The translations under genes were made by a program, and so were the position numbers. This document shows, piece after piece, positions 21,697-63,556 of a stretch of DNA of 64,000 bases. Numbering within the stretch: position 1 is the first letter of the stretch; every line of letters begins with the position of its first letter. The notes under the pieces were generated by a model. The model worked only from the letters and a program-made list of their open reading frames with translations, did not search any database and was not told the origin of the DNA. The stretch is from NCBI GenBank assembly GCA_019057675.1, contig JAHLWX010000002.1, positions 5,239 through 69,238 of the forward strand, in the 5' to 3' direction. This stretch comes from Candidatus Jordarchaeum sp. LHC_1308 (GTDB lineage Archaea; Asgardarchaeota; Jordiarchaeia; Jordiarchaeales; Freyrarchaeaceae).

Positions 21697-23763
21697 GTGC
21701 TCATCATGCAGTTAAATCCCCAAGCTAGGTTTGAAGCTTTCCTGAGGGAATATCGTTCAGCTTCGGGAGCTCCCATATATAGAGAGAAAATAAAGCAGTT
21801 AACTGTGAGCGAATCAAGAAGCCTTATAGTCGACTTCAATCACCTCATCGCATTTGACCCGGAGCTAGCCCGAATGGCCCTCGAACACCCCGACCGCTAC
21901 CTTACAGCTGCAAATCAAGCATTTAAAGAAATTCTAAAAGAAATGGATTCGGAATACTTAGACAAAGTTGAGAGAGTTTATGTTAGACTCTCAAGCTTCC
22001 CTGAAGAATATCGCGTCCCATTAAGAAAACTGAGAGCAGAACACATAGGGAAACTAATAGTAGTTAATGGAATTCTAGTAAGAGCGACTGAGGTAAAACC
22101 TCGCCTTGTTGAAGCCATCTTCAAGTGCCGCAGGTGCGGAGAGCAAATGTCAATTCTTCAGGAGGAAAGAGTACTCATAACCCCCGTGGAATGTGCAAAT
22201 CCTAACTGCAGGCGTAAAGGTCCATTCGACCTAATAGTTGAAGATTCAACCTTCATCGATTGGCAAAAAATAAGGATGCAGGAGAAGCCAGAGGATCTCC
22301 CACCAGGCCAGCTGCCGAGGAGTATAGACGCTATACTAACAGACGATATAGTTGATATAGCCCGTCCTGGGGATAGAATTACGCTGATCGGGGTTCTCAG
22401 ACCAGTTCCTGAAAGTCTCGTAGGTAAGCGGTCAAAGCTCGTAACCTTCAATACCGTACTGGAGGTCAACAACATAGAGGTTGTTGGTGCTGAAGCGGAA
22501 AAGCTTGAAATAAGCGAGGAAGACGAACAAAAAATAAATCAACTATCCCAAGACCCATATGTTACGCAAAAGGTTATCCGCTCGATAGCCCCGAGCATAT
22601 ATGGATACGAGCAAATCAAAGAGGCAATAGCTCTCCTCCTCTTCGGAGGCGTACCCAAAGAGATGCCTGATGGGCACAGGATCCGCGGAGACATAAACGT
22701 GCTTCTCCTAGGAGACCCGGGAGTGGGAAAATCACAAATACTACAATACGTGGCTAGGATAGCCCCCAGAGGACTCTACACTTCAGGAAGAGGCGCCACA
22801 GCTGCCGGCTTAACTGCAGCGGTGATGAAAGATCCCGACAGCGGAACGATGCTTCTTGAAGCCGGAGCCCTCGTCTTGGCAGACCAAGGCGTTGCATGTA
22901 TAGACGAGATGGACAAAATGCGCGAGCAAGATCGCGTCGCCCTGCACGAGGCCATGGAAAGCGGCATGTTATCAATAGCCAAAGGCGGGATAGTGGCGAC
23001 TCTTAATGCCAGAACATCAATCCTTGCTGCAGCCAACCCGGCTCTAGGACGCTACAACCCATATAGGCCTCCCTCAGAAAACTTCAGCTTACCGCCAACT
23101 ATACTTTCAAGGTTCGACCTTATCTTCGTAATGATAGACAAGCCTGCTAGGGAACATGACGAAAAAATGGCTGACCACATACTTCACCTCCATCGTGAAT
23201 ACTCCAGCGAGGAGCCACCGCCGATACCTCCAGACCTACTGAGAAAGTATATTGCATATGCTAGAAAAAACGTTAAGCCACGCCTCTTGCCTGACGCCGT
23301 GGAAAAGTTGCGTGGTTTCTACCTTGAAATGAGGAGTAAAGGAGAGCAGCCAGACGCCCCGGTTCCCATCACGGCGAGGCAGCTTGAAGCACTAGTAAGG
23401 TTAGCAGAGGCTAGGGCGAAAATGGCTCTGAGAAGCGAAGTCACAGCCGAGGACGCTGAGGCAGTAATAAGATTGATGAAAGCATCCTTACAACAAATTG
23501 GAAGAGATACTGAGTCAGGCCTCTTTGACATTGATACTATCTATCTCGGTAGCCCGAAGAGCCAGCGCGACAAAATGCAGGCCGTTCTTGACATAATTAG
23601 TGGTTTAGAAGCAGAGCTAGGCGGACCAGTACCTGTTGAACGAATAATAAGTGAAGCAACCGCGGAGAACATAGACAGGAAATTCGTGGAGAAAGCGCTA
23701 AATAAATTCCTCAGTGATGGCTTACTTTTCGAGCCAAAGCCAGGATATGTTAAACATACATGA
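21697..23763 (+). CDS. mcm: Replicative helicase MCM
   Basis: 688 aa; zinc motif, Walker A GDPGVGKSQ, Walker B DEMDKM, arginine finger SRFDL, C-terminal wH. Confidence 0.95.
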   Translation: MLIMQLNPQARFEAFLREYRSASGAPIYREKIKQLTVSESRSLIVDFNHLIAFDPELARMALEHPDRYLTAANQAFKEILKEMDSEYLDKVERVYVRLSSFPEEYRVPLRKLRAEHIGKLIVVNGILVRATEVKPRLVEAIFKCRRCGEQMSILQEERVLITPVECANPNCRRKGPFDLIVEDSTFIDWQKIRMQEKPEDLPPGQLPRSIDAILTDDIVDIARPGDRITLIGVLRPVPESLVGKRSKLVTFNTVLEVNNIEVVGAEAEKLEISEEDEQKINQLSQDPYVTQKVIRSIAPSIYGYEQIKEAIALLLFGGVPKEMPDGHRIRGDINVLLLGDPGVGKSQILQYVARIAPRGLYTSGRGATAAGLTAAVMKDPDSGTMLLEAGALVLADQGVACIDEMDKMREQDRVALHEAMESGMLSIAKGGIVATLNARTSILAAANPALGRYNPYRPPSENFSLPPTILSRFDLIFVMIDKPAREHDEKMADHILHLHREYSSEEPPPIPPDLLRKYIAYARKNVKPRLLPDAVEKLRGFYLEMRSKGEQPDAPVPITARQLEALVRLAEARAKMALRSEVTAEDAEAVIRLMKASLQQIGRDTESGLFDIDTIYLGSPKSQRDKMQAVLDIISGLEAELGGPVPVERIISEATAENIDRKFVEKALNKFLSDGLLFEPKPGYVKHT

Positions 23764-30703: not shown

Positions 30704-31531
30704 GTGCTTCTGCGGTACGCTGTTAAGCTCGCCTACGTTGGCTCAAACTATTTTGGATTTCAGCGTCAGCCGTCGAAGCTCACCGTGGAGAGCGTCCTGC
30801 TAGAGGCGATGCGTAGAGCTGGAGTACTCTACAACCCTAAGGAAGCCAGATACTCTTCCGCTGGGAGAACCGACAGAGGCGTTCACGCTCTAAGTCAGGT
30901 TGTGGCGTTCAACTTGGACGCCCCCCTCTCCCTCCCAAGAATTAACGCCTTTCTCCCGAGGGATGTACGGTGCTGGGCTTATGCCCTTGTTAATGATGAT
31001 TTCAATCCGCGAAAAGATGCGATACTGAGAACGTACAAATATTATGTTGTTTGGAGAGGGGAAGAGCTAGACCGCATGAGGGAAGCCGCATCATTACTTG
31101 TCGGGACACACGACTTCAGAAATTTCTGCAAGCCTCGCAGTGGTGAGTCGACCATTAGGACATTAAGCCAAGTTGACATCGAAGCACAAGGCGAAATATT
31201 GTGCTTTACTTTCTCGGCCAAGAGCTTTCTTTGGGGTATGGTGAGAAAAATTGTTTCCGCCTTACTCATGGTTGGGACTGGATTAAAGGACGTCGACTTC
31301 GTCTCTTCGCTTCTTAATCCTGAGTTTAATCCAAGGGAAGGAATTAGGCCGGCTGATCCAAGGGGACTTGTACTTTACGACATAAAGTATCCCTTTAGAT
31401 TTAAAGTATGCGAGAAAAGTAGAAGGTCTTTCCTAAACTATTTAACTGAAGAGCTTCACGCTACTATTACTCTTTCATCGGTTTACCATGCATTGATAGA
31501 TAGTATAACGGTTAACTCAAAATTTTCTTGA
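30704..31531 (+). CDS. truA: tRNA pseudouridine synthase TruA (Pus1-like)
   Basis: 275 aa; catalytic motif RTDRGVHA. Confidence 0.85.
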   Translation: MLLRYAVKLAYVGSNYFGFQRQPSKLTVESVLLEAMRRAGVLYNPKEARYSSAGRTDRGVHALSQVVAFNLDAPLSLPRINAFLPRDVRCWAYALVNDDFNPRKDAILRTYKYYVVWRGEELDRMREAASLLVGTHDFRNFCKPRSGESTIRTLSQVDIEAQGEILCFTFSAKSFLWGMVRKIVSALLMVGTGLKDVDFVSSLLNPEFNPREGIRPADPRGLVLYDIKYPFRFKVCEKSRRSFLNYLTEELHATITLSSVYHALIDSITVNSKFS

Positions 31532-32777
31532 CTTTCTCAGCGACTTCCTTAGAGATAAGCCCTCCAACAACCTCTGGCTCGATGTCAAACAATTTAACCA
31601 GATTTGCCCCCGCCTCCGGGTTAGCCTCGATGATGAATTTAATGTAAGGAAGATACGACGTAAACGCCTCTCTAGAGGAGACATGACACTTCTTACCTAT
31701 TTTGCTGGCTATGCTTCCTATAGCGTTTCTTCTAGCTTTAGCAGCACTCATCATTTTCACCCAGCTTGGAAACTGGTACTTTGGTACGCCTCCTCCGCTC
31801 GTTTTTCTTGAAAGTGAAACTCCTGCGGACATCAAAGTGAAAACATACGAGAGCAACCCCCAATGTTGTCTCTTCCTTATTCTTCCAAGAAACACGTCCG
31901 CCCTAGAGAGAGCGTTATAGGCGTCTGCTAGCTCCTTAGGATATTGCATGTGTTGCCATGCGTTTTCACATATCCATTGCATAAGCAACTCGTAATCCAC
32001 GTCGGATGAAGATGCCGCCATAACTATTTTTTGCGCGTCCTTACCGTAAAATATGGCTTTAAGTATATCAAACACGTTCCTTTCTTGGTCCCTTAATGAA
32101 AGAATACGCAAGTCATCCATAGTTATACGCTCTCTTCCCTCAGCCACCATCTGAAGATCATTTATGGCAGCTCTCAAGTCTCCTCTAGCGTTTTCAGCTA
32201 TTCCTCTGAGGGCTGCGGGATCGGCTTGCACCCCTTCCCTTTCACATATCCTAGCCAGAATACTGGATATAACGTTCGACCTTATCCTATTGAACCTCAC
32301 AAGTTCACAGTACTCTCTTACGGAGGCAAGCTTAGGATCCCAAGGATCATTGGCAACTAAGATAACTGGGTGAACAGTATTTTTCAGGATCTCCACAAGC
32401 CCACTTATACCGCCTTTATCCTCGCTCCCGCTTATCCCGTCAACCTCATCAACTAGAATAACCCTCTTTCTCCCCATTATGAGAGAAGAAAGAGAGGATG
32501 CTGTACCCACCGTCTTCCGAATTTCATCTAAGCTTCTCTTGTCACTTGCGTTAACCTCCACCAGGTCATATTCCAGCTCTTTAGCCGCAGCGTAGACTGA
32601 AGCAGTCTTACCCACACCGGCAGGACCCCAGAGAAGGAGCGCCCTAGGCTTTTGATCTGGACGCCAATTCGAAATAAACTCGGCAACTCTCTCCGCAGCC
32701 TTCCTGTTCTCGACTATCTCACTCACCTTTCTTGGGGCATATTTCTCCGCCCAAAGCATCCTAGACAATTTTTTCAC
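31512..32777 (-). CDS. rfcL: Replication factor C large subunit
   Basis: 421 aa; AAA+ Walker [13 protein letters not shown] box, C-terminal PCNA-interacting tail; overlaps the rfcS start by 4 nt. Confidence 0.85.
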
Positions 32778-33763
32778 CCACCGATCTGCGAACCTACGTA
32801 AGCGAATTTTGCAAGAAGAGCGCTGAGCTGAATCTCCTCGTCAGCCCCCTCACTCATCCTGAAATCTATTTCTCCAACAATGTCCGCTAGCTGAGCCTTC
32901 CACCCCTCAGGAATATCAAGGTTAAAAAGCTCCCTATGTATCTGTCTGACGACGTCTATTCCTGAGAGCCCATATGTTACTAAAAGATCATGGAGCATTT
33001 TCCTTGCCTTTACAAAGTCTCCCTTAAGCGCTAGCCCGATCATCTCGCGTACCTCCTCCGGCCTCGCCTTGCCGGTAACCATGAAGACAGAGTCTGCTGT
33101 GATGGGACCGCCTATTGCTGCAGCCGCTTGAAGCGTGTTTACTGCACGCCGTAAGTCTCCCTCGCTCACGTAAAGGATCGCCTCTATACCACTGTCATCT
33201 AGCTCTACACTCTCTCTCCCAGCTATGTAGAGAAGGCGTTTTGCCACGTCCTCCCTACTTAGAGGAGAAAACCTGAAGAGTGCGCATCTTGACTGGATTG
33301 GCTCGATTATTTTGCTGGAATAGTTGACTATAAGAATGAACCTACACGTCCTAGTGAAGCGTTCCATCGTTCTCCTCAGAGCTTGCTGTGCCTCTTGGGT
33401 AAGTGCATCAGCTTCATCCAGCACTAGGATCTTAAATGGTACTTCGCCAAGCGGCATAGTCCTAGCAAAGTCCTTAACGACGCCTCTGATCACATCGATG
33501 CCCCTAGCATCGCTTGCATTGAGTTCTAAAAAGTTTCCTTGAAAATATTCCCCGAAAAGGTCATGGGCTAAGCAAAGAGCCGCCGTGGTTTTGCCAGTTC
33601 CCGGCGGCCCTGAAAAAAGGCAGTGCGGCATATCCTTTTTCTCAACGAACGTCCGAAGCCTAGAGACGATTTCTGCTTGATTCACAATATCGTTTAGAGT
33701 TCTAGGCCTATACTTTTCAGTCCACATTAATGTTTCCTCGCTCGCCAAGCGCCTACCCCCCAA
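32774..33763 (-). CDS. rfcS: Replication factor C small subunit
   Basis: 329 aa; [17 protein letters not shown] motif. Confidence 0.95.
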
Positions 33764-34852: not shown

Positions 34853-35210
34853 GGGTGGTGGTGTAGGCGGGCGGCTAGGGGTCGCCTGATGGGGAAGCAT
34901 TGCTTCCCTTGACCGCAAACCCTCTTATGGCGGGCCGAAAGCCGGCGTGAGGCGTTCGTCAACCGTCACATCCCCTTCACGTTAAGGCGATGAAAACTCG
35001 TCCCAGAGGGCTAGCGGCGTCCGTCCGTCCTCCGTAGGGAGGACATGTTCGGTCTCTACTAGGGGAAACTGGCCAGGCCCGGGAGAGCTTGTCACGGCCC
35101 CGATGGAGCAACCTAACCCTAGACGCGTGGCGCTTCTGGGGAAGCGGGTTTGAGACCAAATGTGAAGGGTGTGGCGGGAGAGGTCGTCGATCGCCGGGAC
35201 CACCACCCGC
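34853..35210 (+). ncRNA. ffs: Signal recognition particle 7S RNA (probable)
   Basis: ~358-nt GC-rich (~62%) non-coding island; 5' GGGUGGUGG pairs with 3' CCACCACCC; contains helix-8-like CCAGGCCCGGGAGAGC and GGAGCAAC motifs; followed by a T5 terminator; no RNase P P4 consensus. Confidence 0.5.
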
Positions 35211-37528: not shown

Positions 37529-38014
37529 TTGTCAAACGAGAGAAAGTTTGAAATAGACGTTGAAGTGATAAAGACTCCGGCAGGTAATGTTCCAACAGCT
37601 AAGACAGTTGAGAGAATAATTGAAGGAATGAACGTTTTAAGTGAGGATTTGAGTTCTGTCTCTTCTTCATTATCTGAATCCCTAAAGCATATTACTACTG
37701 AGTTGAAAAGTATTAAAAAAATGATGTCAAAAACTACCGTTTCCTCTGAGGCAACCATGGAGGCCGTTAAGAGGCTGGAGAAGAAAATCAACCAGTTCTC
37801 TAAGGAAGAAGCTGAAAGGTGGAGGCGCCTCCAGCAAGTCCTCACACTAATAACGGAAGTCCTTAAAGTCATTCACAACGAGGTGAACGAGAAAAGCATC
37901 AGGACAACATCAAAAATAGACAAGCTACTATCCCTGCTAGCTCCCACTACACCTGCAAAAACAGTTCCAGCAAAGCTGGATAAACCAGCAAAGCCCCTCA
38001 AAAAGGTTACCTAA
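37529..38014 (+). CDS. Coiled-coil hypothetical protein (partner of 38011..38676)
   Basis: 161 aa; predicted all-helical with Ser/Thr-rich segments and a basic Pro/Lys tail; 4-nt convergent overlap with the next gene. Confidence 0.4.
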   Translation: MSNERKFEIDVEVIKTPAGNVPTAKTVERIIEGMNVLSEDLSSVSSSLSESLKHITTELKSIKKMMSKTTVSSEATMEAVKRLEKKINQFSKEEAERWRRLQQVLTLITEVLKVIHNEVNEKSIRTTSKIDKLLSLLAPTTPAKTVPAKLDKPAKPLKKVT

Positions 38015-38676
38015 CCACTTTTCCCGCCGAACAAATCCTCGTTAAGCCTCACCTCATCTCCATTCAACCTTACTATTCCCATCCTTTCCATTCTAGCCAA
38101 AACAAGTTTCACTTGTCCCTCAGAAACCCCCATCGTCTTAGACAAGTCTGTTACCTTGCATCGACCTATGCTTTTCAAAATGAAATACGGCTTATAATTG
38201 ATGTCGCCTTCTATTAGCTTCTCAAGCGAGCTTAAAAGCTCCTCCAGCCTCTTTCTCTCCTCCTCTAAACTGGAAACTTTCTTTCTCAAATATTCAACTT
38301 CCCCTCCAAGCTCTCCTATTCTTTCTTCCTTAGCAAGTATCTCTCCCTTTAACCTTGAGATTTCGGCTTGAAGCATTTCCTCACTAAGCCTCTTATCCTC
38401 CTCAAGACGCCTAAGCTTAAGCTTTTCCTCCTCAAGCATCATCTCCAACTTCTTTTTCTCACGGGAAGCCTCCTCCATGGAATCCAATACCTTCTCAAGC
38501 CGTTTAACTTCTCCCTCACGCTCTCTCCTAGCCGCATCAAACCTTGTTCTCCACTCTTCAACCTCTCTCTCAAGCTCCTCTATGCGCGCCTTCTGCCTCT
38601 TAATCTCCTCCCCCTGTTTTTCCAACTTAGCCTCCAAGATTCTTAGGGCCTCCATCCTTCCCTCAGGCTCCCCCAA
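38011..38676 (-). CDS. Coiled-coil protein with C-terminal winged-helix-like domain (paralog B)
   Basis: 221 aa; extreme E/K/R coiled-coil, then C-terminus YFILKSIGRCKVTDLSKTMGVSEGQVKLVLARMERMGIVRL...EVRLNE matching paralogs A and C. Confidence 0.5.
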   Translation of the reverse strand: MGEPEGRMEALRILEAKLEKQGEEIKRQKARIEELEREVEEWRTRFDAARREREGEVKRLEKVLDSMEEASREKKKLEMMLEEEKLKLRRLEEDKRLSEEMLQAEISRLKGEILAKEERIGELGGEVEYLRKKVSSLEEERKRLEELLSSLEKLIEGDINYKPYFILKSIGRCKVTDLSKTMGVSEGQVKLVLARMERMGIVRLNGDEVRLNEDLFGGKSG

Positions 38677-38821
38677 AGAAATTTCCCTCCAATAATCACT
38701 TGAAAGAGAAGATCAGGTTGTCATGAGCTCTTCATCGTTTCCTCGGACTGGGACGGCGCCATCATCTCTACACTCAAATGGACGAATGGGAGAATTTATA
38801 ATTATCGTTTTTAGCGGAAAG

Positions 38822-40872: not shown

Positions 40873-41515
40873 TCCTCAGAACCACTTTCGACTAAAAGTC
40901 TACTTCCCCCCATAACACAATCTCCTTTTATAGTTTACCGTTACTGAAGGGCACAATACTCTAAAAGGGAGAGTACTAGGCAGCCTAAAACTAATGAATA
41001 TGGCTGTGCTGAGTGAAGTAAGTGATTTCAAGTCCGGGTCAAATACTGAAAGCATTTCTCTTTTGTTGACTGAAGTAGTATCTAAATTCAGGATAGCGTC
41101 TATTCTCTAGGACTAATAGGGGAAAGAGTTCCTGAAGCCTGAAGACGGCTAGCAATAAAGGTGAAATGCGTCAAAAGGGACATGAGCATCTTAAAGCAAG
41201 TTGCAATCATGGGAACAGAGAAAACCAGTAAGAATCGCCTTTAGTCATTCTGAACTGGACAAAAGATGGGAAATGCCATCGTGAACGACTTCATTCTTTT
41301 TAGATTCAAGCTGCATCGTGGAAGCTTGAAGAACTCCAGCATACTAGAGAAAACACCCGGTAAGTTAATACTTTTATATTCTTCACAGGAATCGAATCTC
41401 TGGCAGGGAGTGCAGTTTTTCATACGTCATAGGGGAAACATAAACTACGTCTAAAGGAAGTTGAAAACAAAACATATATGGTGTTAAGGTCGTTAACGCA
41501 ACAAACACCTATTTT

Positions 41516-42274
41516 TCATCGTTCTTCCCTCAGGCTGCTTATTTTTTCCTCTATTTCTTTCATTTCTCTTAGCTTGGCGTTCAGCGCATCTTTTTCTTCA
41601 ACCCCTCCAAGTCCCATGTCGATCAACATCTGCAAGCTTGAAATTTCTCCTTTAAGTTTAGCTCGTCTTGCCTCAAGCCGTGCTATCTCCTTCATTTTTT
41701 CAACATCCTTAGTTGAAGGGAAGACAGGCTCCTCCTCCCTCGTAACCTCCTCGCTTCTCTTGACAATTGCCTCCTCCACGCTTGCAGATACATTGGTCTG
41801 CTCTCGAATTTCGGTGCTTCTCTCTTGGACTTTAACTTCCTTATCCTCCTCCACCCATTCTTTTCCTGCTACTTTCCTCCCCTCTTCAATTTTGTCTTCT
41901 CGCCTCTCGAGAAGGGAAGTGAACCGCTCCTCCAGGCTTATGAGACTTTCATTCAGCATTCTTAATTGATCACGGAGCATAAGTACTTCCTTCATTATGC
42001 TCAACTTAAAATCTGCCACTTCCTTTTCCATTCTTATAACTACATCCTCGACCTTTTCCATCCGCTCTAATACTGGCTTCAAGGTTCCGTAAACATCTTT
42101 AGCATTCTCCGTGAGAGAATCGACTTTTGCCATATGCTCTAATACTGGCTTCAGGGCTTCCCTGAATGCCGCCACAATTTTTTCGATGTTCCTGCTAATC
42201 AATAACTCTCCAAGCCCACTTATAATGGCGTCCACATCCACCGCAGTCCCCTTACCTGAATCTGCCGGGTTCAC
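41516..42274 (-). CDS. Coiled-coil hypothetical protein with internal repeats (partner of 42586..43320)
   Basis: 252 aa; heptad-rich; repeated LKPVLE(H/R)M(A/E)KV(D/E) modules encoded by repeated DNA around 42060-42160. Confidence 0.45.
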   Translation of the reverse strand: MNPADSGKGTAVDVDAIISGLGELLISRNIEKIVAAFREALKPVLEHMAKVDSLTENAKDVYGTLKPVLERMEKVEDVVIRMEKEVADFKLSIMKEVLMLRDQLRMLNESLISLEERFTSLLERREDKIEEGRKVAGKEWVEEDKEVKVQERSTEIREQTNVSASVEEAIVKRSEEVTREEEPVFPSTKDVEKMKEIARLEARRAKLKGEISSLQMLIDMGLGGVEEKDALNAKLREMKEIEEKISSLREER

Positions 42275-42585
42275 TTTAACCCCTCCAATGCCCCCTTCTC
42301 AACTGCAAAATCAGCTTCAAATAACCTGTTATGAAATCCCTGTTATTAAACTGTTTCTGCCTATAACTTTTTCATATCTTTTTGTGTTTTAATGTCTAAC
42401 TTAAACGACCATCTAGTAATTATTTCAGTAATTTCCCGAGGAGAATTGATAATTTGCCATTTACCAACGCATATCTTTCCATTTTGGGCTCTACTTCTTT
42501 GAGAGAAAAATAATTATTAGACCAAAATGATAATAGTATAAATTGCATTTGTTCTCGAGTAGAATTAAACTAGAATGGTGGTTGA

Positions 42586-43320
42586 ATGACGGCTTCACAG
42601 CAAGCGCCGCTTCAAAGCGAAGAAGCCGCCTCTAAAACTCAAAAGTTAATCGAGTTGCTCGCGCCAGTTAAGGAACATGTGATACGTAATATTCTGGCAA
42701 GGTTTCCCATGCGTGGATTAGAGCAAATACTTCGTGAGACATTTGACAGTGCAGTTACCGAAAACATAGAATTATTCTCCAGTTTCATTAATTCCACCCC
42801 CCCGGAAGGAGGCAGAGATCCAAGCAAGCATCAGTCGCAGAAGGAGCAAGAGGGAGGACAGTTAAAGGCGGCAATGCTGGAAGCCAAAGAGCTTCTAAAG
42901 AATCCTCCTTCAGAGAGTGAGGAAAAAGGAGAGCCGCTTAAAGAGGATCTTTCACGTTTAAAGAGAGAGATTGATCGCTTAGTTCTCGAACTGAAGATTA
43001 AAGATAAGAAGCTTAGAGAGCAGGAAAAGCTTCTGGAAAAGTTGCGCGTGATTGCCGAAAACGGGCTGATACCCGTTTTCGAAAATACTTCGTCATCCAA
43101 TATTGAAGTTCGTTCCTTCTGGAAACGTCTAGGTGAATTCTTAGAAAAAGATCCGAAATTCAAAATCTTGCGTCTCCTTGTGGGCGTGAAGGAAGCTAAT
43201 GTAGACAGCATCTACAAGTCTGTCGGAACGCACAGGGAATTGGTGGCAAAGTGTCTTGAGGAGATGAAAAATGCGAACTTGATAAAAGTTACAGGAGAAA
43301 GCATAAGCCTGAACTTATAA
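42586..43320 (+). CDS. Coiled-coil protein with C-terminal winged-helix-like domain (paralog C)
   Basis: 244 aa; central coiled coil, C-terminus KFKILRLLVGVKEANVDSIYKSVGTHRELVAKCLEEMKNANLIKV matching paralogs A and B. Confidence 0.5.
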   Translation: MTASQQAPLQSEEAASKTQKLIELLAPVKEHVIRNILARFPMRGLEQILRETFDSAVTENIELFSSFINSTPPEGGRDPSKHQSQKEQEGGQLKAAMLEAKELLKNPPSESEEKGEPLKEDLSRLKREIDRLVLELKIKDKKLREQEKLLEKLRVIAENGLIPVFENTSSSNIEVRSFWKRLGEFLEKDPKFKILRLLVGVKEANVDSIYKSVGTHRELVAKCLEEMKNANLIKVTGESISLNL

Positions 43321-43322
43321 AA

Positions 43323-43649
43323 TTACCGCCGTTTTCCAACTTTAAGTTTGTTAAGCGGTATTCTGTAAGCTCCCTCTCTGTCTGACACTATAGGCGGGGC
43401 ACCCTTGAAAAGTGCTTCAATATCTATTTCAAACACTCCTCTACGCAGAATTCTCACGGTTTCCAACTTATCTTCTTCACTTCGCGTCATAGGAAGCAGA
43501 TTCTTCTCTTCCTCCTTTTTCTCCTCTTTTACTTCGCGCATAAGTTTGAAGACGTTAGAGCCGCACGCCGGGCAGTTCAGTTCATTATGACCTTGAGGCA
43601 TCCTTTTGCCACATACCACACAGACATTATAGAAACTCACTTCGTACAC
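43323..43649 (-). CDS. Zn-ribbon protein (DUF2072-like)
   Basis: 108 aa; CVVCG...CPACG zinc ribbon, then a charged region. Confidence 0.55.
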   Translation of the reverse strand: MYEVSFYNVCVVCGKRMPQGHNELNCPACGSNVFKLMREVKEEKKEEEKNLLPMTRSEEDKLETVRILRRGVFEIDIEALFKGAPPIVSDREGAYRIPLNKLKVGKRR

Positions 43650-43954
43650 CCCACCGTGTATGCCAGAGATATGAAGTCTCCTTCCCTCGTTACCTCTACG
43701 ATGTCGGATGGTGCCACAACAGTTATTTTGCCCCCCTTCTTCTCTCCGTTAAATGTGATTACTTCTATTCCATTAAACTCCTTGAAGTCAATCTCCAACA
43801 TGGTTTCCTTTATGAGTTCAACTTGCTCCTCAGGCTTTAGCCTCTCCTCCAAAATCAATATTCTTTTTCCCTTCACTCTTTCAATGATCATTCTAACTTT
43901 ATCGTTGGGACTTAATCTCCTAGTAGCCTTCTCGGAGATTATATCTATTTTCAA
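43637..43954 (-). CDS. DUF2073-like conserved archaeal protein
   Basis: 105 aa; overlaps the Zn-ribbon gene by 13 nt and follows the GTPase gene (conserved triad arrangement). Confidence 0.45.
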   Translation of the reverse strand: MKIDIISEKATRRLSPNDKVRMIIERVKGKRILILEERLKPEEQVELIKETMLEIDFKEFNGIEVITFNGEKKGGKITVVAPSDIVEVTREGDFISLAYTVGCTK

Positions 43955-43966
43955 GATGGCACCCTC

Positions 43967-44572
43967 CTAGCAGGACTCTGCTATCACCTTATAAAGCTCC
44001 TCCATGTTGTCTCCTTTAAGAGCGGATACGCATACAACCTTGTAACCCGGGAAGGACTCCTTTATAAGCTCAGGTCGCGCCTCTGGAAGGTCTATCTTGT
44101 TCGCGACGAGAATCGTCGGTATCCTTTTAGCCTTCAAATTTCCCAATATTACGAGGTTAACTTGGTCGAAAGGAACCTTCGTTGCATCAAAAACAGTTAA
44201 AGCTAAATCTATGTTATCAAGCCACTGTATGGCCTCTATGACGCCACGTGTAGCCTCTTTAGCTCTCTCCACAGCCTCCTCTTCGCTTAACCCGTGCCTC
44301 ATGAAATCCCTGTAATCCACTTTGCTAGCTATTCCCGGCATGTCGACCAAGTCAACGTTAACTCCCTTACCGTTAAACCTTATGTTGACCTGTCTCACAA
44401 TGGTTGCCTTCCTCGTCTCGTGGGGTATAGGCGATACGGTGCCAACTTCAACACCTGAAAAGTCCAAGGATATCCTGTTCGCAAGAGTGGTCTTGCCAGC
44501 ATTAGGCGGCCCGTAAATTCCTAAAATCAAGCTCTGCTTTTTCTTAAACATCTTCGAAATTTTGTCGAGCAA
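43967..44572 (-). CDS. Small TRAFAC-class GTPase
   Basis: 201 aa; G1 GPPNAGKT, G3 DMPG, G4 NKID, G5 SAL. Confidence 0.8.
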   Translation of the reverse strand: MLDKISKMFKKKQSLILGIYGPPNAGKTTLANRISLDFSGVEVGTVSPIPHETRKATIVRQVNIRFNGKGVNVDLVDMPGIASKVDYRDFMRHGLSEEEAVERAKEATRGVIEAIQWLDNIDLALTVFDATKVPFDQVNLVILGNLKAKRIPTILVANKIDLPEARPELIKESFPGYKVVCVSALKGDNMEELYKVIAESC

Positions 44573-44647: not shown

Positions 44648-45235
44648 ATGGTTTTAAGCGTGAATAATACAATGAAAACATTAAAACACGCTTCAGGTAG
44701 CCGCAATGGAGGTATCTGTTTGTTAAGGAAAAAGGTGATACGTCTGACATTCGTTTTTCTAGTCGCGTTATCCTTTACTGTTGGCTTAACTCCAACAGGA
44801 TTAGCTTCCCTACTGGGAGCCAACATGACAAAAATATACTTCGCTCCGTTAAACCAATCGGTCGAATATCCGCCTCCATGGGATACGTTTTATTACTTCT
44901 ACTCTGTGATTCTTGGCTACAATGGATATGCGCTAGACCTTAATGTGATCCTAATAGTAGATGTAAGGAAGGGATCCCCTTACGGGGAACTGGCTGGTGA
45001 TCATAGTTTTGCGTATGACATGGCACTGTTTATGCAGCCCGGAAGCCTGAAGCTTCTGAACCTCTCCTTATCCGTTCCAGCATCCGAAATCGAGGCTGCG
45101 GCTAATGGTAGCCCCCTTTGGATGACTATAACCACTGTGGCATGGTTCACCACTTGGTTCATGGGAAATATCCAAATTATAACGCCAACTGTTATTAGAA
45201 CCCTTATACCTCTACATGTACTACTCACGAAGTGA
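44648..45235 (+). CDS. Hypothetical secreted/membrane-anchored protein
   Basis: N-terminal hydrophobic anchor (LTFVFLVALSFTVGL), then a probable extracytoplasmic domain; start likely at an internal Met. Confidence 0.4.
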   Translation: MVLSVNNTMKTLKHASGSRNGGICLLRKKVIRLTFVFLVALSFTVGLTPTGLASLLGANMTKIYFAPLNQSVEYPPPWDTFYYFYSVILGYNGYALDLNVILIVDVRKGSPYGELAGDHSFAYDMALFMQPGSLKLLNLSLSVPASEIEAAANGSPLWMTITTVAWFTTWFMGNIQIITPTVIRTLIPLHVLLTK

Positions 45236-45698
45236 GGCGACAACCTTGAAGAAGCAACTTGATAGACCTGCTGTGAGAGCCCTTCTTATGTCCTCCTTAA
45301 CGTTTCTCTCGACAGCCGTGGCGCCAGCCCTAGGAAAGAGTCTTGCACAGCGGTTCAACCTATTCATTCAACTTTTGGATCCGCTCGTCATAGGATTAAT
45401 AGGAGCAGTCGTGAGTGTCATGGTTTTCCTAGACAACTTCTTCCGCCGTTCAAACCCTGTCTTAAGTGGGGTCTTCGGCACGCTCAACAACCTTATTGGA
45501 TTAATCTATATGTTAGTTTTCGCCGAAATGTTAACTAGCATAAGCATTCCTGTAACCCAGATTTTCTACAGCTCTTTAACGTTCGTAACAATAAACTATC
45601 AGCCAATAGTAACTCTCATCATAATAGTATTCGTCGTCAGAATGTTACGTCACTTCTACCAAATACTCTTCCACGAGCAACTAAAGGAAGTAGCTTAG
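45216..45698 (+). CDS. Hypothetical integral membrane protein
   Basis: 160 aa with 3-4 predicted TM helices; overlaps the preceding gene by 20 nt. Confidence 0.45.
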   Translation: MYYSRSEATTLKKQLDRPAVRALLMSSLTFLSTAVAPALGKSLAQRFNLFIQLLDPLVIGLIGAVVSVMVFLDNFFRRSNPVLSGVFGTLNNLIGLIYMLVFAEMLTSISIPVTQIFYSSLTFVTINYQPIVTLIIIVFVVRMLRHFYQILFHEQLKEVA

Positions 45699-49689: not shown

Positions 49690-49777
49690 TGGCGGCCCCG
49701 AGGGGATTCGAACCCCCGACACCCGGCTTAGGAGGCCGGTACCCTCTCAGAACACATCCTGGCTGGGTTACGGGGCC
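49690..49777 (-). tRNA. tRNA-Arg (anticodon CCU) with putative ~11-nt non-canonical intron in the D-loop
   Basis: Minus-strand reading: acceptor GGCCCCG/CGGGGCC, anticodon arm CCGGC-CUCCUAA-GCCGG, T-arm GGGGG-UUCGAAU-CCCCU, encoded CCA; D-stem ACCC/GGGU encloses 20 nt (AGCCAGGAU + extra GUGUUCUGAGA). Confidence 0.7.
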
Positions 49778-49885: not shown

Positions 49886-49982
49886 GCGGGCGTAGTCCAG
49901 CCTGGTCTAAGACGTCGGCCTGCCACGCCGAGGACCCGGGTTAGGGCATTGTCCCCTCGAACGAATCCCGGCGCCCGCACCA
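49886..49982 (+). tRNA. tRNA-Gly (anticodon GCC) with putative ~19-nt non-canonical intron in the T-loop
   Basis: Acceptor GCGGGCG/CGCCCGC, A73, encoded CCA; anticodon arm UCGGC-CUGCCAC-GCCGA; 4-nt variable loop; T-stem CCGGG/CCCGG encloses 26 nt = UU + AGGGCAUUGUCCCCUCGAA + CGAAU (UUCGAAU when the insert is removed). Confidence 0.7.
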
Positions 49983-58938: not shown

Positions 58939-59559
58939 ATGCAAGGTGAAATAAAAATGGAGCCAGACGTTCTTAAAGAAACTGTTAAGGAATTAGACCA
59001 GTCGGCAAAGCTAATAAGAGACCTCGTATCCGACCTTATAAAGTTAAGGCGTAGCCTCCTAAAGGCGTACTCAGGCCTCAGTAAGCTCGTAGAAGAACCT
59101 GAGCTCCTAAAGCCAGCAGCTCCTTTACCATCTCTCTCCACGCCACCTTCGCCTCCGACGCCCATACCTCAACAAGCCGAGATAGCGCCGCCGTCGGCTC
59201 TTCATACAACTACACCTCCATTAGTGCAGCCTCAAGCTAAGCCGTCAGTAACCTCCATCACGACGCCTTCCGCGGCACCTCCAACAGTCAAGGAGACTGC
59301 TGCTAAAGGGGAGATGAGCAACTTCGTAGTGGCGTTCTCAGAATCGGTAAAGTCTGATCCGCATGTTTCCAACGTCATAAAAAAACTTAGTGAGTTTAGA
59401 GAGAAAATCGAGAAAAAATACGTTTATCATCCTATTCTTTCAGAGGTCAAACTGGTTGTTTCGAAATTCCAAGGAATTCCCGAGGACAGCGTGCTGAGCG
59501 AGGATGACGTGAATAAGCTTCTGGAGAAGCTTTCTGACTGGGTTTCCCGGCTTTCATAG
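58939..59559 (+). CDS. Hypothetical protein with central Pro/Thr/Ala-rich linker
   Basis: 206 aa; helical N-terminal region, PT-rich low-complexity middle, C-terminal domain. Confidence 0.4.
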   Translation: MQGEIKMEPDVLKETVKELDQSAKLIRDLVSDLIKLRRSLLKAYSGLSKLVEEPELLKPAAPLPSLSTPPSPPTPIPQQAEIAPPSALHTTTPPLVQPQAKPSVTSITTPSAAPPTVKETAAKGEMSNFVVAFSESVKSDPHVSNVIKKLSEFREKIEKKYVYHPILSEVKLVVSKFQGIPEDSVLSEDDVNKLLEKLSDWVSRLS

Positions 59560-62418: not shown

Positions 62419-63291
62419 TTGTGCGGCGCTATCACGGTGGCAGCCATTCAGTTGAAGAAGGCCAATAGCAAGGAGGAAAATTTTAGAAGTGTTTCTAGAC
62501 TGATTAATGAGGCTATTAAGAGGGAAAACGTGGATCTTGTATGCCTTCCCGAAAAGTGGAACATTAAAGAGGGCAACCCCCCCGCGGACTCTGAGAGTCC
62601 TGACGGCCCCAGCATAAGGTTCCTAGAGTCTGTCGCCGAGGAATACGGAGTCTACGTGCTCGGCGGCTCGCTGTGGGAGAAGTGGGATGGAAAAATATAC
62701 AACGTTTCTCGCCTTCTAGATAGGTCAGGTAGATGCGTCGGAATACATCAGAAGATCCACCTTTACGGCATGGAGAAACAGTTTTTCGAGCCGGGCAACC
62801 GCCTTGAACCATGTGAGACAGAGTTCGGCAAGGTGGGCCTAACCGTGTGTTTTGACCTAGCTTTCCCCGAAGTTGCAAGACTTCTCACACTCAAAGGAGC
62901 CGACATTATTTTAAACCCTGCTTTCATACCCTCAGATGGCGTGGAGAACTGGCACGTCTACGTGAAAGCCAGAGCTTTAGAGAACAGGATACCCATCGTC
63001 GGAATAAACTCTGTGAGCTTCGAAAGGGGGATCAGCTGGCCTGGAGAAAGCATAATAGTCGGCTTTCATGAGGGACATGAATCCCCAGCTAAATTAAATA
63101 TCCTCGTCGGAAAAAGAGGAGAAGAAGACGTGCTAATCCAAAAAGTTGATTTGGATTATCCGCGCCGAATTAGGGCGATTCGTTTATCTGAAAAAGCAAA
63201 GGTTGTAGATGAGCTTTTTAAGTCACATAGCTCGGAAACCTTTTTTAGTTTAAGGTGTGATGAGCTGAGGCGGAGGCGGAACCATGGGTAA
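62419..63291 (+). CDS. Carbon-nitrogen hydrolase (nitrilase superfamily)
   Basis: 290 aa; catalytic E-K-C triad context (CLPEKW, ..K.., VCFDLAFPE); TTG start. Confidence 0.8.
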   Translation: MCGAITVAAIQLKKANSKEENFRSVSRLINEAIKRENVDLVCLPEKWNIKEGNPPADSESPDGPSIRFLESVAEEYGVYVLGGSLWEKWDGKIYNVSRLLDRSGRCVGIHQKIHLYGMEKQFFEPGNRLEPCETEFGKVGLTVCFDLAFPEVARLLTLKGADIILNPAFIPSDGVENWHVYVKARALENRIPIVGINSVSFERGISWPGESIIVGFHEGHESPAKLNILVGKRGEEDVLIQKVDLDYPRRIRAIRLSEKAKVVDELFKSHSSETFFSLRCDELRRRRNHG

Positions 63292-63556
63292 GAAAATGAA
63301 GCAGGAGGAAAAAGTTGTCGAAAAGGAAGTGCGCAAGGTAATGGTTGACGAGGCAATACTTGAATCCATAGAAAAAGAAACTCCGAAAATGAAGGTCATA
63401 ACGCTGAGCGAAATATCCGACAAGTATGGCATAAGAGTTAGTACTGCTAAGTTGATCCTGAAACGCTTGGAGGAAAAGGGACTTATAAAACTAGTATCCT
63501 CTGATAGGCGGCTTAAGATCTGGACTGGGACAAAGGCTGAAGCGGCTGCAAGCTAA
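63284..63556 (+). CDS. rps25e: 30S ribosomal protein S25e
   Basis: 90 aa; basic N-terminus and wHTH (ITLSEISDKYGIRVSTAKLILKRLEEKGLIK). Confidence 0.75.
   Translation: MGKKMKQEEKVVEKEVRKVMVDEAILESIEKETPKMKVITLSEISDKYGIRVSTAKLILKRLEEKGLIKLVSSDRRLKIWTGTKAEAAAS

Follow-up and report, generated by a model that had tools for sequence, protein, structure and literature searches.

A Jordarchaeia-specific family of coiled-coil/winged-helix proteins encoded in the vicinity of small GTPase genes

Within a 64,000-nucleotide stretch of Jordarchaeia (Asgard) DNA, to which we refer as the window, two genes are arranged divergently, one of them encoding a coiled-coil protein of 252 amino acids and the other a coiled-coil/winged-helix (CC-wHTH) protein of 244 amino acids. 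Both ORFs, their divergent orientation and the 311-nt spacer between them had been proposed in the original prediction and their coordinates were confirmed. Orthologs of both ORFs, with 33-76% identity, are encoded in at least six other Jordarchaeia genomes and, as judged from this conservation at the amino acid level, both are real genes. Genes for MCM, RFC, RPA and DNA ligase are also present in the window. The features discussed here are listed in Table 1.

Table 1. Positions of genes, protein segments and spacer elements in the window.
Feature	Position (nt)	Strand	Residues	Remarks
Helical protein next to copy 1	37529..38014	(+)		161 aa, basic (pI 9.7); convergent with copy 1, 4-nt overlap
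Distant paralog (copy 1)	38011..38676	(-)		221 aa; ~150 aa coiled coil plus winged helix homologous to that of the family
Coiled-coil partner gene	41516..42274	(-)		252 aa, GTG start
Partner, C-terminal helical hairpin	41525-41713	(-)	188-250	conserved; invariant G-L-G turn
Partner, disordered acidic linker		(-)	133-185	
Partner, LKPVLE(H/R)MxKV(D/E) unit, twice	42047..42154	(-)	41-52 and 65-76	
Partner, long helices		(-)	14-139	
Divergent intergenic spacer	42275..42585			311 nt
TATA-like TGTTAT(G/T)AAA repeats	42325-42350			upstream of coiled-coil gene
AT-rich block TTTGAGAGAAAAATAATTATTAGACCAAAATGATAATAGTATAAAT	about 42490-42547			in spacer; ~55 nt, conserved in close relatives
GGTGG ribosome-binding site	42577-42581			upstream of CC-wHTH gene
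CC-wHTH gene	42586..43320	(+)		244 aa, ATG start; clade 1 of Jordarchaeia-only family
N-terminal helical domain	42616..42786	(+)	11-67	
Single long helix	42931..43059	(+)	116-158	conserved L-x-L-x-x-K-x-R-D-x-K motif
C-terminal winged helix	43102..43311	(+)	173-242	MarR/ArsR/TrmB-like fold, pI ~9
arvC/dipC/oapC	43323..43649	(-)		Zn-ribbon, 108 aa; Pfam PF09845 OapC, 42 bits (cut-off 23)
arvB/dipB/oapB	43637..43954	(-)		DUF2073; Pfam PF09846 OapB, 67.8 bits (cut-off 27)
arvA/dipA/oapA	43967..44572	(-)		small GTPase; GPPNAGKT, DMPG, NKID

Three parts can be distinguished in the CC-wHTH protein: a helical N-terminal domain comes first, followed by a coiled coil about 45 residues long and by a winged helix resembling those of MarR and ArsR; a disordered linker, likewise of about 45 residues, is also present. 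The N-terminal domain is a bundle of four short helices (7-15 residues each; about 55 residues in total) for which no Pfam or PDB match was obtained, and it carries the loop R39-F40-P41-x-x-G44-L45 together with F53-D54 (RFPxxGL...FD), near-invariant across the whole family. The single long helix is read as a dimerising coiled coil. The C-terminal part displays the three helices and the beta-hairpin wing of a winged-helix fold, with helix 1 (DPKFKIL) as its most conserved segment and a recognition helix that is conserved within each clade of the family and differs between clades. When the family is considered as a whole, the most conserved residues are those of the N-domain loop, of the coiled coil (KxRDxK) and of winged-helix helix 1, and the recognition helix is not among them. 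The winged helix is basic in 14 of 16 members (pI 8.2-10.2) and acidic or neutral in the other two (L010, pI 5.1; L013, pI 6.5); recognition helix and wing are weakly basic, and the wing tip is without a basic residue.

None of the Pfam winged-helix models was matched at its gathering score, and a match of this type in the window protein amounted to 14.4 bits for a cut-off of 27. Below threshold, matches to MarR were obtained for 9 of 12 members, to HTH_24 for 8 and to TrmB, Crp and ArsR for 6 each, with best E-values across these 12 members of 1e-3 to 1e-4. The top matches in a PDB profile search were the archaeal regulators Lrs14-like and PH1932 (all E > 0.01), and one family member has been annotated as MarR family by NCBI. 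The fold is nearest to that of DNA-binding regulators, with cullin WHB and the RPA32 winged helix also among the fold matches. In contrast to MarR, ArsR, TrmB and Lrs14 regulators, however, the winged helix is preceded by a long coiled coil and a novel N-domain, and dimerisation would not occur through a helical bundle as in MarR-type proteins. The order of N-terminal input domain, dimerising alpha-helix and C-terminal wHTH is that of CRP/FNR proteins; Foldseek aligned the long helix and the winged helix with CRP, FNR, CprK and Vfr, with E-values that are not significant, and there is a weak match to HTH_Crp_2. However, the N-domain is all-helical instead of a cyclic-nucleotide-binding beta-barrel and gave no match to cNMP_binding, and membership in CRP/FNR was rejected on this domain content. 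A likeness also exists to CdvB, likewise helical with a winged helix at its C-terminus, which binds CdvA, the product of a neighbouring gene, and the CdvB winged helix (2xvc) gave a profile match with a non-significant E-value of 0.17. ESCRT-III/CdvB membership was likewise rejected: there was no match to Snf7, the N-terminal helices are too short for the long alpha1-alpha2 hairpin of the ESCRT-III core, and the partner protein is without a PRC barrel. In a PADLOC analysis no defence-system protein model was satisfied, the matches being due to coiled-coil bias (LmuB/JetC arms) and to generic wHTH similarity (CasR/Csa3), and the idea of a defence island was discarded.

The partner protein is acidic (pI 5.0) and known from Jordarchaeia only. 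A profile HMM built for it also detects the partners at the distant loci L010 (E 7.7e-8) and L020 (E 7e-7), Foldseek returned only non-significant helical hairpins (for example ESCRT-I headpiece, SerRS arm and CdsO), and hhalign detected no relationship between the partner and the CC-wHTH protein encoded opposite.

On the far side of the CC-wHTH gene lies arvC, in convergent orientation and with 2 nt separating the two stop codons. The arvC product has a CxxC...CxxC N-terminus, arvC overlaps arvB by 13 nt, and arvB is located directly downstream of arvA on the same strand after a gap of 12 nt. The original description of these genes as Zn-ribbon, DUF2073-like and GTPase is borne out by Pfam matches to OapC, OapB and MMR_HSR1, the latter with 51.6 bits (Arf, 20.7 bits, stays below threshold). 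With the GTPase motifs in ArvA, OapB directly downstream and OapC within two genes, the triad is, by its sequence features, the already known OapABC/ArvABC/DipABC, and it has the same content, the same order and the same organisation in one operon as HVO_3014/3013/3012 (OapABC) of Haloferax volcanii. In comparison with known OapABC systems, it is a rare Asgard instance with a short DipC and with no orc1/origin gene (Orc1/Cdc6) among the about 40 window ORFs screened with Pfam, and the idea of an origin-associated locus was dropped for this reason. The N-terminus of ArvA, MLDKISKMFKKK, could form an amphipathic helix that targets the membrane. According to two reports, ArvABC has a role in the formation of extracellular vesicles and ArvA occurs in 8 of 183 Asgard genomes (PMC10927574), DipABC oscillates from pole to pole in a Min-like fashion and positions the FtsZ divisome (bioRxiv 10.64898/2026.05.19.726155), and the functions of the triad are known only from Haloferax and Archaeoglobus; the passages searched in both reports make no mention of a coiled-coil or winged-helix neighbour of Arv/Dip. 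A word-indexed homolog search with ArvB gave matches in Jordarchaeia only, and a scan of viral contigs with ArvB gave no match.

With the window protein as seed, the CC-wHTH family was defined as those Jordarchaeia proteins that give a full-length profile match and possess the RFPxxGL...FD N-domain, the KxRDxK coiled coil and a DPK(F/Y)K winged helix. It comprises 16 distinct members in three clades and, according to an exhaustive profile search, is confined to Jordarchaeia. Members of clades 1 and 2 are encoded 0-8 kb from dip/arvCBA, and the divergent coiled-coil partner is kept in both clades. Clade 2 belongs to a distant Jordarchaeia lineage, in which ArvA is 68.5% identical and the CC-wHTH protein only about 23%, and where the same divergent pair is found 3.6-8.2 kb from arvCBA with 4-5 genes inserted between. 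Members of clade 3 reside within same-strand clusters of genes for Rag-like (Gtr1/RagA-like) and longin-Arf-like GTPases, with a gap of 28-73 nt to the downstream GTPase gene; these clusters already hold a bona fide regulator, TackOD1-HTH-AsnC. Since a small GTPase gene is present within 700 nt in 12 of the 15 informative loci, linkage of the family to GTPase modules is supported at the level of gene neighbourhood; within 9 kb, it is present in all 15. The co-localisation with the GTPase triad that had been claimed for the window thus exceeds local synteny, as the divergent pair recurs in a distant lineage and clade 3 in clusters of unrelated small GTPases.

Nevertheless, every locus belongs to a single archaeal class in which synteny is broad, leaving few independent events (about 2-3), and the GTPase neighbourhood might be meaningless, in which case a lineage-specific regulator and a structural coiled-coil protein would simply be carried in a conserved housekeeping block. 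Indeed, synteny across all clade-1 genomes extends over the whole 12-20 kb that encode TtuA, M50 protease, RNase P subunits, L15e, TIP49 and others, clades 1 and 2 possibly represent one ancestral placement, and the 8.2 kb that separate L020 from its arv genes are not significant on their own. Asgard genomes are also rich in small GTPases, with published estimates of up to about 2% of genes. The window, however, contains one small GTPase gene only, and at this density we estimate the chance of finding one within 700 nt at roughly 2% per independent event. Moreover, the linkage has outlasted rearrangements, namely the deletion of two genes in the window, the insertions in clade 2 and a shuffled gene order in clade 3 (L016 versus L013 versus L022), and in 7 distinct genomes the clade-3 gene has GTPase genes as neighbours on one side or on both. 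We regard mere adjacency as a rather unlikely explanation.

A second winged-helix gene, copy 1, had, together with its neighbour, been taken as evidence for a paralogous gene pair repeated twice. Copy 1 is without the N-domain and has only the coiled coil and the winged helix in common with the CC-wHTH family. In plain BLASTP the two are not significantly similar (E 1.5-2.1), and both proteins produce many spurious coiled-coil Pfam matches, as would be expected if the resemblance were one of coiled-coil composition between unrelated proteins, a caveat raised in the original prediction itself. Profile-profile comparison, however, gave a probability of 92% (E 6.4e-7) over the full length and of 98% (E 2.8e-13; 59 columns) for the winged helix alone after removal of the coiled coil, and an HMM of the winged helix, searched against 1800 ORFs, picked up the copy-1 proteins (E-values between 7e-11 and 3e-6) without matching any other wHTH protein. 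By these comparisons the two winged-helix proteins are true paralogs, and a compositional artefact is refuted for them and appears highly improbable overall. It does hold for the two coiled-coil partner genes, whose 252-aa and 161-aa products are unrelated by hhalign (probability 6.6%), and the arrangement differs as well, with copy 1 and its neighbour being convergent and the second pair divergent; only the winged-helix half of the proposed repetition stands. No copy-1 homolog was found at the two distant Arv loci, for which the sequence upstream of the CC-wHTH gene extends over only about 1.2 kb (L010) or 10 kb (L020). The window holds no further member of the CC-wHTH family: a weak winged-helix match at 63269-63553 looks by eye like ribosomal protein S25e, and 58939-59559 encodes a low-complexity helical protein.

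The conserved AT-rich block within the divergent spacer is interpreted as a BRE/TATA promoter from which the CC-wHTH gene would be transcribed. An inverted repeat at 42412-42425/42508-42521 is not conserved in relatives, and no operator common to the 311-nt spacer and other promoters was found. When the spacer was compared with the region upstream of copy 1, as the original prediction had suggested, k-mers common to both were traced to the TATA-like box of a C/D-box sRNA promoter, the only common element, and were rejected as an operator. Neither a dyad operator nor any other motif common to the spacer and the arvA upstream region was found in six species; the statistical power of all these operator comparisons is low.

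How the CC-wHTH protein works can be proposed as follows. The 244-aa protein would form a parallel dimer via its coiled coil and bind DNA with its two winged helices, acting as a dedicated regulator of itself and of the divergently transcribed coiled-coil partner; its N-domain would serve as the input site, with the GTPase module next door or the coiled-coil partner as a plausible source of the signal, and paralogs of the protein might act likewise in the gene clusters of other small GTPases. We infer such a role from the sub-threshold matches to wHTH regulators, the Lrs14-like and PH1932 matches and the one MarR annotation, from the predominantly basic winged helix, from the divergent pairing kept in clades 1 and 2 in spite of about 23% identity along with the conserved block upstream of the wHTH gene, from recognition helices that vary in the way that paralogous regulators with distinct targets should, and from the frequency of nearby GTPase genes. 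Arguing against it are the failure of every Pfam wHTH model to reach its gathering score, the position of the most conserved residues outside the recognition helix, a wing tip without a basic residue, the two non-basic winged helices, the negative operator comparisons and the few independent events. A further point is the embedding of clade-3 genes, on the same strand and with gaps of 28-73 nt, in GTPase clusters that already include TackOD1-HTH-AsnC, an arrangement for which a partner at the protein level would be no worse an explanation. A dimeric DNA-binding regulator is our best guess, a tentative one with less than even confidence, and a plain transcription-factor role is the most likely of the readings considered.

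The main competitor is that the CC-wHTH protein and its partner are putative protein-level GTPase accessories (effector, adaptor, scaffold or regulator) and not transcription factors. A dimeric coiled coil would then present the N-domain and a winged helix that does not bind DNA to the GTPase module, which in the window would mean working with the DipABC/ArvABC system of membrane oscillation or vesiculation, perhaps by being its cargo or by connecting it to divisome or chromosome. This is consistent with the linkage of one family to three GTPase types (ArvA/DipA, Gtr1/RagA-like and longin-Arf-like), with the operon-like spacing in clade 3, with family-wide invariant residues in RFPxxGL...FD, KxRDxK and winged-helix helix 1, with a non-basic wing and some acidic winged helices, and with the negative operator search. 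The acidic partner, with its disordered linker and helical hairpin, is typical of a structural or adaptor protein, and protein-binding winged helices exist in archaea, with that of CdvB among the weak matches and cullin WHB and RPA32 among the fold matches. On the other hand, the fold is nearest to DNA-binding regulators, the clade-1 gene is convergent with the arv operon and not co-transcribed with it, the clade-2 gene lies kilobases away and ArvABC/DipABC functions in 14 phyla without the CC-wHTH family, so that any role with this system would be a lineage-specific add-on. On balance we consider an accessory function somewhat unlikely. A narrower proposal, which we judge unlikely, is that family members are lineage-specific direct partners of small GTPases, with the winged helix anchoring the complex on DNA or on another protein. 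R39, a residue of the exposed RFPxxG loop that at least 90% of the members share, could then serve as an arginine finger or switch-binding element; in the window, the chromosome or the coiled-coil partner would be coupled to the DipABC oscillator, in the manner of a nucleoid-occlusion factor or a cargo adaptor, and at other loci the protein would serve Rag-like and longin-Arf-like GTPases.

MatP-ZapB and SlmA/Noc, accessory pairs of the bacterial division site, offer an analogy, in that a DNA-binding coiled-coil protein is paired with an all-coiled-coil protein and operates together with Min-type positioning. These proteins are not related in sequence or fold to the pair described here; the analogy rests on the adjacency to DipABC and leaves the clade in Rag/Arf-like GTPase clusters unexplained.

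Asgard archaea possess many small GTPases whose partners and cellular roles are almost entirely uncharacterised. The CC-wHTH family is uncharacterised, easily recognised and genomically tied to three GTPase types, among them Arv/Dip, the one small-GTPase system of archaea for which phenotypes have been obtained by experiment, and it provides concrete candidates for interaction and DNA-binding studies as well as lineage-specific neighbours of the Arv/Dip operon in one of the few Asgard groups carrying it. Its impact is limited by its occurrence in one class, Jordarchaeia, that is not closest to eukaryotes.

A minor feature concerns the partner protein, for which internal LKPVLE(H/R)MxKV(D/E) repeats had been predicted. 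The motif is indeed present twice, as LKPVLEHMAKVD at residue 41 and LKPVLERMEKVE at residue 65, with 10 of 12 residues identical and a spacing of 24 residues. Conservation of an LxPVxEH-like motif common to both divergent genes does not extend beyond clade 1, and the motif was treated as a chance resemblance. The repeat is not conserved across the family of partner orthologs, being a single copy in L003 and a diverged version in L005, and a 24-aa unit thus seems to have been duplicated in tandem only recently.

The divergent arrangement proposed in the original prediction was reproduced exactly, as both ORFs are present and separated by a shared spacer of 311 nt. One ORF encodes a 252-residue coiled-coil protein and the other a 244-residue coiled-coil/winged-helix protein, CC-wHTH. 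Candidatus Jordarchaeales/Freyarchaeota provide the best homologs, which assigns the window to the Asgard class Jordarchaeia. Since orthologs in at least six other genomes (33-76% identity) display clear amino acid conservation, both genes are real. A block of about 55 nt in the spacer, AT-rich and kept in close relatives, is interpreted as the CC-wHTH promoter.

Features of the window and predicted segments of the CC-wHTH protein
Feature	Position	Strand	Remarks
ATP-dependent DNA ligase	1345-3093		
RPA-like OB-fold protein	9022-10704		
MCM	21697-23763		
RFC large and small subunits	31512-33763		
Archaeal SRP RNA	34855-35206		
Probable C/D-box sRNA	38711-38768	-	promoter TATA ~38793-38801; between copy-1 wHTH gene and Rpp14/Pop5 gene
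Coiled-coil partner gene	41516..42274	-	252 aa
CC-wHTH gene	42586..43320	+	244 aa
CC-wHTH four-helix N-domain	aa 11-67		AlphaFold2; followed by disordered linker
CC-wHTH helix	aa 88-105		AlphaFold2
CC-wHTH long helix	aa 116-158		AlphaFold2
CC-wHTH winged helix	aa 173-242		AlphaFold2
oapC/arvC/dipC	43323..43649	-	Pfam OapC
oapB/arvB/dipB	43637..43954	-	Pfam OapB (DUF2073)
oapA/arvA/dipA, small GTPase	43967..44572	-	GPPNAGKT/DMPG/NKID
tRNA-Leu(GAG)	49690-49777	-	ARAGORN

AlphaFold2 models calculated from ortholog alignments gave a mean pLDDT of 69.7 for CC-wHTH and of 63 for its partner. No Pfam model matched the CC-wHTH family at threshold; weak matches among 12 members were to MarR (9/12) and to HTH_24, TrmB, Crp or ArsR (6-8/12), and the N-domain had no match in Pfam or PDB profile searches. 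Residues invariant or nearly invariant throughout the family are located in the N-domain (R39-F40-P41, G44-L45, F53-D54), the coiled coil (L132, K137, D140, K142, E145) and helix 1 of the winged helix (K191, K193, I194, L198). The partner (pI 5.0) is predicted to form long helices at residues 14-54 and 61-139, followed by an acidic, disordered stretch (133-185) and a confident helical hairpin (188-219/225-250; pLDDT ~91) around an invariant G-L-G turn. The internal repeats noticed earlier do occur (LKPVLEHMAKVD at residue 41 and LKPVLERMEKVE at residue 65); however, the motif occurs only once in one ortholog and has diverged in another, indicating that the 24-residue unit is a young tandem duplication and not a signature of the family.

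A paralogous pair repeated twice had also been proposed, and this holds for the winged-helix members only. BLASTP of CC-wHTH against the 221-residue coiled-coil/winged-helix protein of copy 1 (38011..38676, minus strand) gave no significant match. Profile-profile comparison of the ortholog alignments at full length gave a probability of 92% (E = 6.4e-7) across the C-terminal coiled coil and winged helix, and with the coiled coil removed the winged helices alone reached 98% (E = 2.8e-13), which rules out coiled-coil composition as the source of the similarity. A winged-helix-only HMM searched against 1800 ORFs also picked up every copy-1 ortholog (E = 7e-11 to 3e-6) but none of the other wHTH proteins; the two are therefore genuine distant paralogs. 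Copy 1 lacks the N-domain of CC-wHTH. The coiled-coil neighbours, acidic with 252 and basic with 161 residues, are unrelated (profile-profile probability 6.6%), and the copy-1 genes are convergent with a 4-nt overlap whereas the CC-wHTH pair is divergent. A small winged-helix ORF at 63269-63553 (plus strand) matched the copy-1 profile weakly (E = 0.0012) and was rejected as a family member, its sequence resembling ribosomal protein S25e by eye.

The Zn-ribbon, DUF2073-like and GTPase genes expected downstream of CC-wHTH are present and are the oapABC operon known from Haloferax volcanii. In the work that renamed it ArvABC, ArvA is shown to drive extracellular-vesicle formation, and just 8 of the 183 Asgard genomes were found to have it (PMC10927574), which makes the window triad a rare case among Asgard archaea. 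A 2026 preprint, using the later name DipABC, describes the system as a Min-like oscillator that moves from pole to pole and sets the position of the FtsZ divisome (bioRxiv 10.64898/2026.05.19.726155). The triad is therefore already known, and CC-wHTH is a winged-helix protein with unusual architecture and context. Its gene is convergent with arvC, the stops being 2 nt apart, and thus lies outside the arv operon. The family, its N-domain and an association with small GTPases were not described in the searched portions of the Arv, Dip and Asgard Arf papers, nor elsewhere in the literature searched.

When 1.84 billion representative proteins were searched exhaustively with an HMM of the CC-wHTH orthologs, only 10 matched, and a scan of 185,579 species (one genome per species) yielded 8 loci. 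Named records with the family are all from Jordarchaeia/Freyarchaeota, apart from one MAG labelled Thermoproteota; CC-wHTH is a Jordarchaeia-only family, whose 16 distinct sequences divide into three clades. In clade 1, which comprises the window and five further species at 45-75% identity, the order is invariably coiled-coil partner (-), CC-wHTH (+), arvC-B-A (-); this proves little on its own, as the entire surrounding block is syntenic in that lineage. Clade 2 consists of a Ca. Jordarchaeum sp. and the complete Freyarchaeia chromosome CP147778.1, with CC-wHTH about 23% and ArvA 68.5% identical to those of the window. The divergent partner is retained (HMM E = 7.7e-8 and 7e-7), so that it is conserved in two clades, and the distance to arvCBA is 3.6 kb (L010) or 8.2 kb (L020, the other clade-2 locus), the genes in between encoding TatD, an AAA_18 kinase and two or three uncharacterised proteins, small or large. 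Clade 3, present in seven distinct genomes, lies away from Arv and belongs to clusters in which other small GTPases are encoded on the same strand (L013, L016, L021-L024), with a TackOD1-HTH-AsnC regulator upstream and, immediately downstream (gaps of 28-73 nt), longin-domain/Arf-Roc-like fusion GTPases (312-346 residues), either single or as two or three in tandem. On the complete chromosome (L022 7147-14083), a Gtr1/RagA-like GTPase (372 residues, 73 bits) directly precedes CC-wHTH and three tandem longin-GTPases follow it.

The anticipated co-localisation was therefore found in related genomes: all 15 informative loci have a small GTPase gene of one of three types no more than 9 kb away, and in 12 of them the distance is at most 700 nt. 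The entire 64-kb window contains one small GTPase; we roughly estimate that an independent event would place a GTPase no further than 700 nt away with a chance of ~2%, and we count two to three such events. The adjacency might be inherited synteny devoid of functional meaning, and clade 1 would fit this; however, the association persists in clade 3 despite a gene order that varies between genomes, and we consider this explanation improbable. Linkage of the family to GTPase modules is supported but, because all data come from one class, not proven.

The regulator-like fold, the mostly basic winged-helix domains and the divergent gene arrangement lead us to suggest, tentatively, that CC-wHTH is a dimeric DNA-binding regulator, similar in topology to CRP (input domain, dimerisation helix, wHTH), that would control its own gene and that of the partner, paralogs serving other GTPase clusters. 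A role as protein-level GTPase adaptor or effector, the main rival, seems only somewhat less likely to us. In its favour, family conservation is strongest outside the recognition helix (conserved inside each clade, divergent across clades), wings are non-basic, the winged helix is neutral or acidic in two members, clade 3 is operon-like inside clusters that already have a regulator, and the partner is acidic and partly disordered. Also in favour of an adaptor, no operator was found: the suggested comparison of the spacer with the copy-1 upstream region gave GAGAATT(G/T)ATAATT as sole common element, and spacer and arvA upstream regions of six species had no common k-mer beyond AT-rich hexamers. 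An ordinary regulator is still the most likely outcome and, within the bounds of a single class, the family is a source of testable candidates, as partners or regulators, for work on Asgard small GTPases and the Arv/Dip system.

In the copy-1 region, GAGAATT(G/T)ATAATT is the TATA element before a ~58-nt element whose C, D', C' and D boxes indicate a probable C/D-box sRNA, AUGAUGG(C)-CGCCGUCCCAGU-CCGA(D')-GGAAA-CGAUGAA(C')-GAGCUCAUGACAAC-CUGA(D). The element is nearly invariant across five Jordarchaeia loci, with flanking proteins 59-75% identical, and gave only sub-threshold C/D-box matches in Rfam (sR5, GlsR4). A 94-nt Rfam tRNA call at 49886-49979 (plus strand), unreported by ARAGORN, is possibly an intron-containing archaeal tRNA.

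Replication genes, together with NucS and a KaiC-like ATPase, crowd the upstream half of the window (1345-33763); Orc1/Cdc6 was not found among the ORFs screened, so that the haloarchaeal origin-associated context of oapABC is not evident here. Divergent from arvA are two hydrophobic proteins of 195 and 160 residues (44648-45235 and 45216-45698, plus strand) without Pfam match, possible membrane partners of Arv/Dip in some lineages. The pair also adjoins arvA in L001, L007/L019, L008 and distant L010 (160-residue protein, 34% identity) and is absent from L003/L004 and L006, where TIP49 directly follows arvA. Several Jordarchaeia (L007 2711-3250, L019 14766-15422, L010 9194-9883) have an additional Ras/Arf-like small GTPase past TIP49 or the two membrane proteins, at 2-4 kb from the arv operon, with none at the equivalent window position.

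The 'Thermoproteota archaeon' MAG (L019, JAPDJY010000035.1) carries a complete Jordarchaeia-type block (161-aa gene, copy-1 wHTH, coiled-coil partner, CC-wHTH, arvCBA, two membrane proteins), its CC-wHTH being at least 97% identical to that of JGI metagenome locus L007, and is probably misclassified. Between L15e and the coiled-coil gene, relatives all carry two extra genes (L001 6298-8876), encoding a Lactamase_B protein (235 residues) and a DUF11/CLIPPER beta-sandwich protein (585-593 residues) with a near-threshold adaptor-complex mu-homology match (Adap_comp_sub, E = 2.4e-7, 30.8 vs 31.6 bits). In their place, the window has a non-coding stretch of 643 nt (40873-41515), in which 41190-41357 may be a remnant of the 593-residue gene (tblastn, 33% over 63 residues, E = 0.1).
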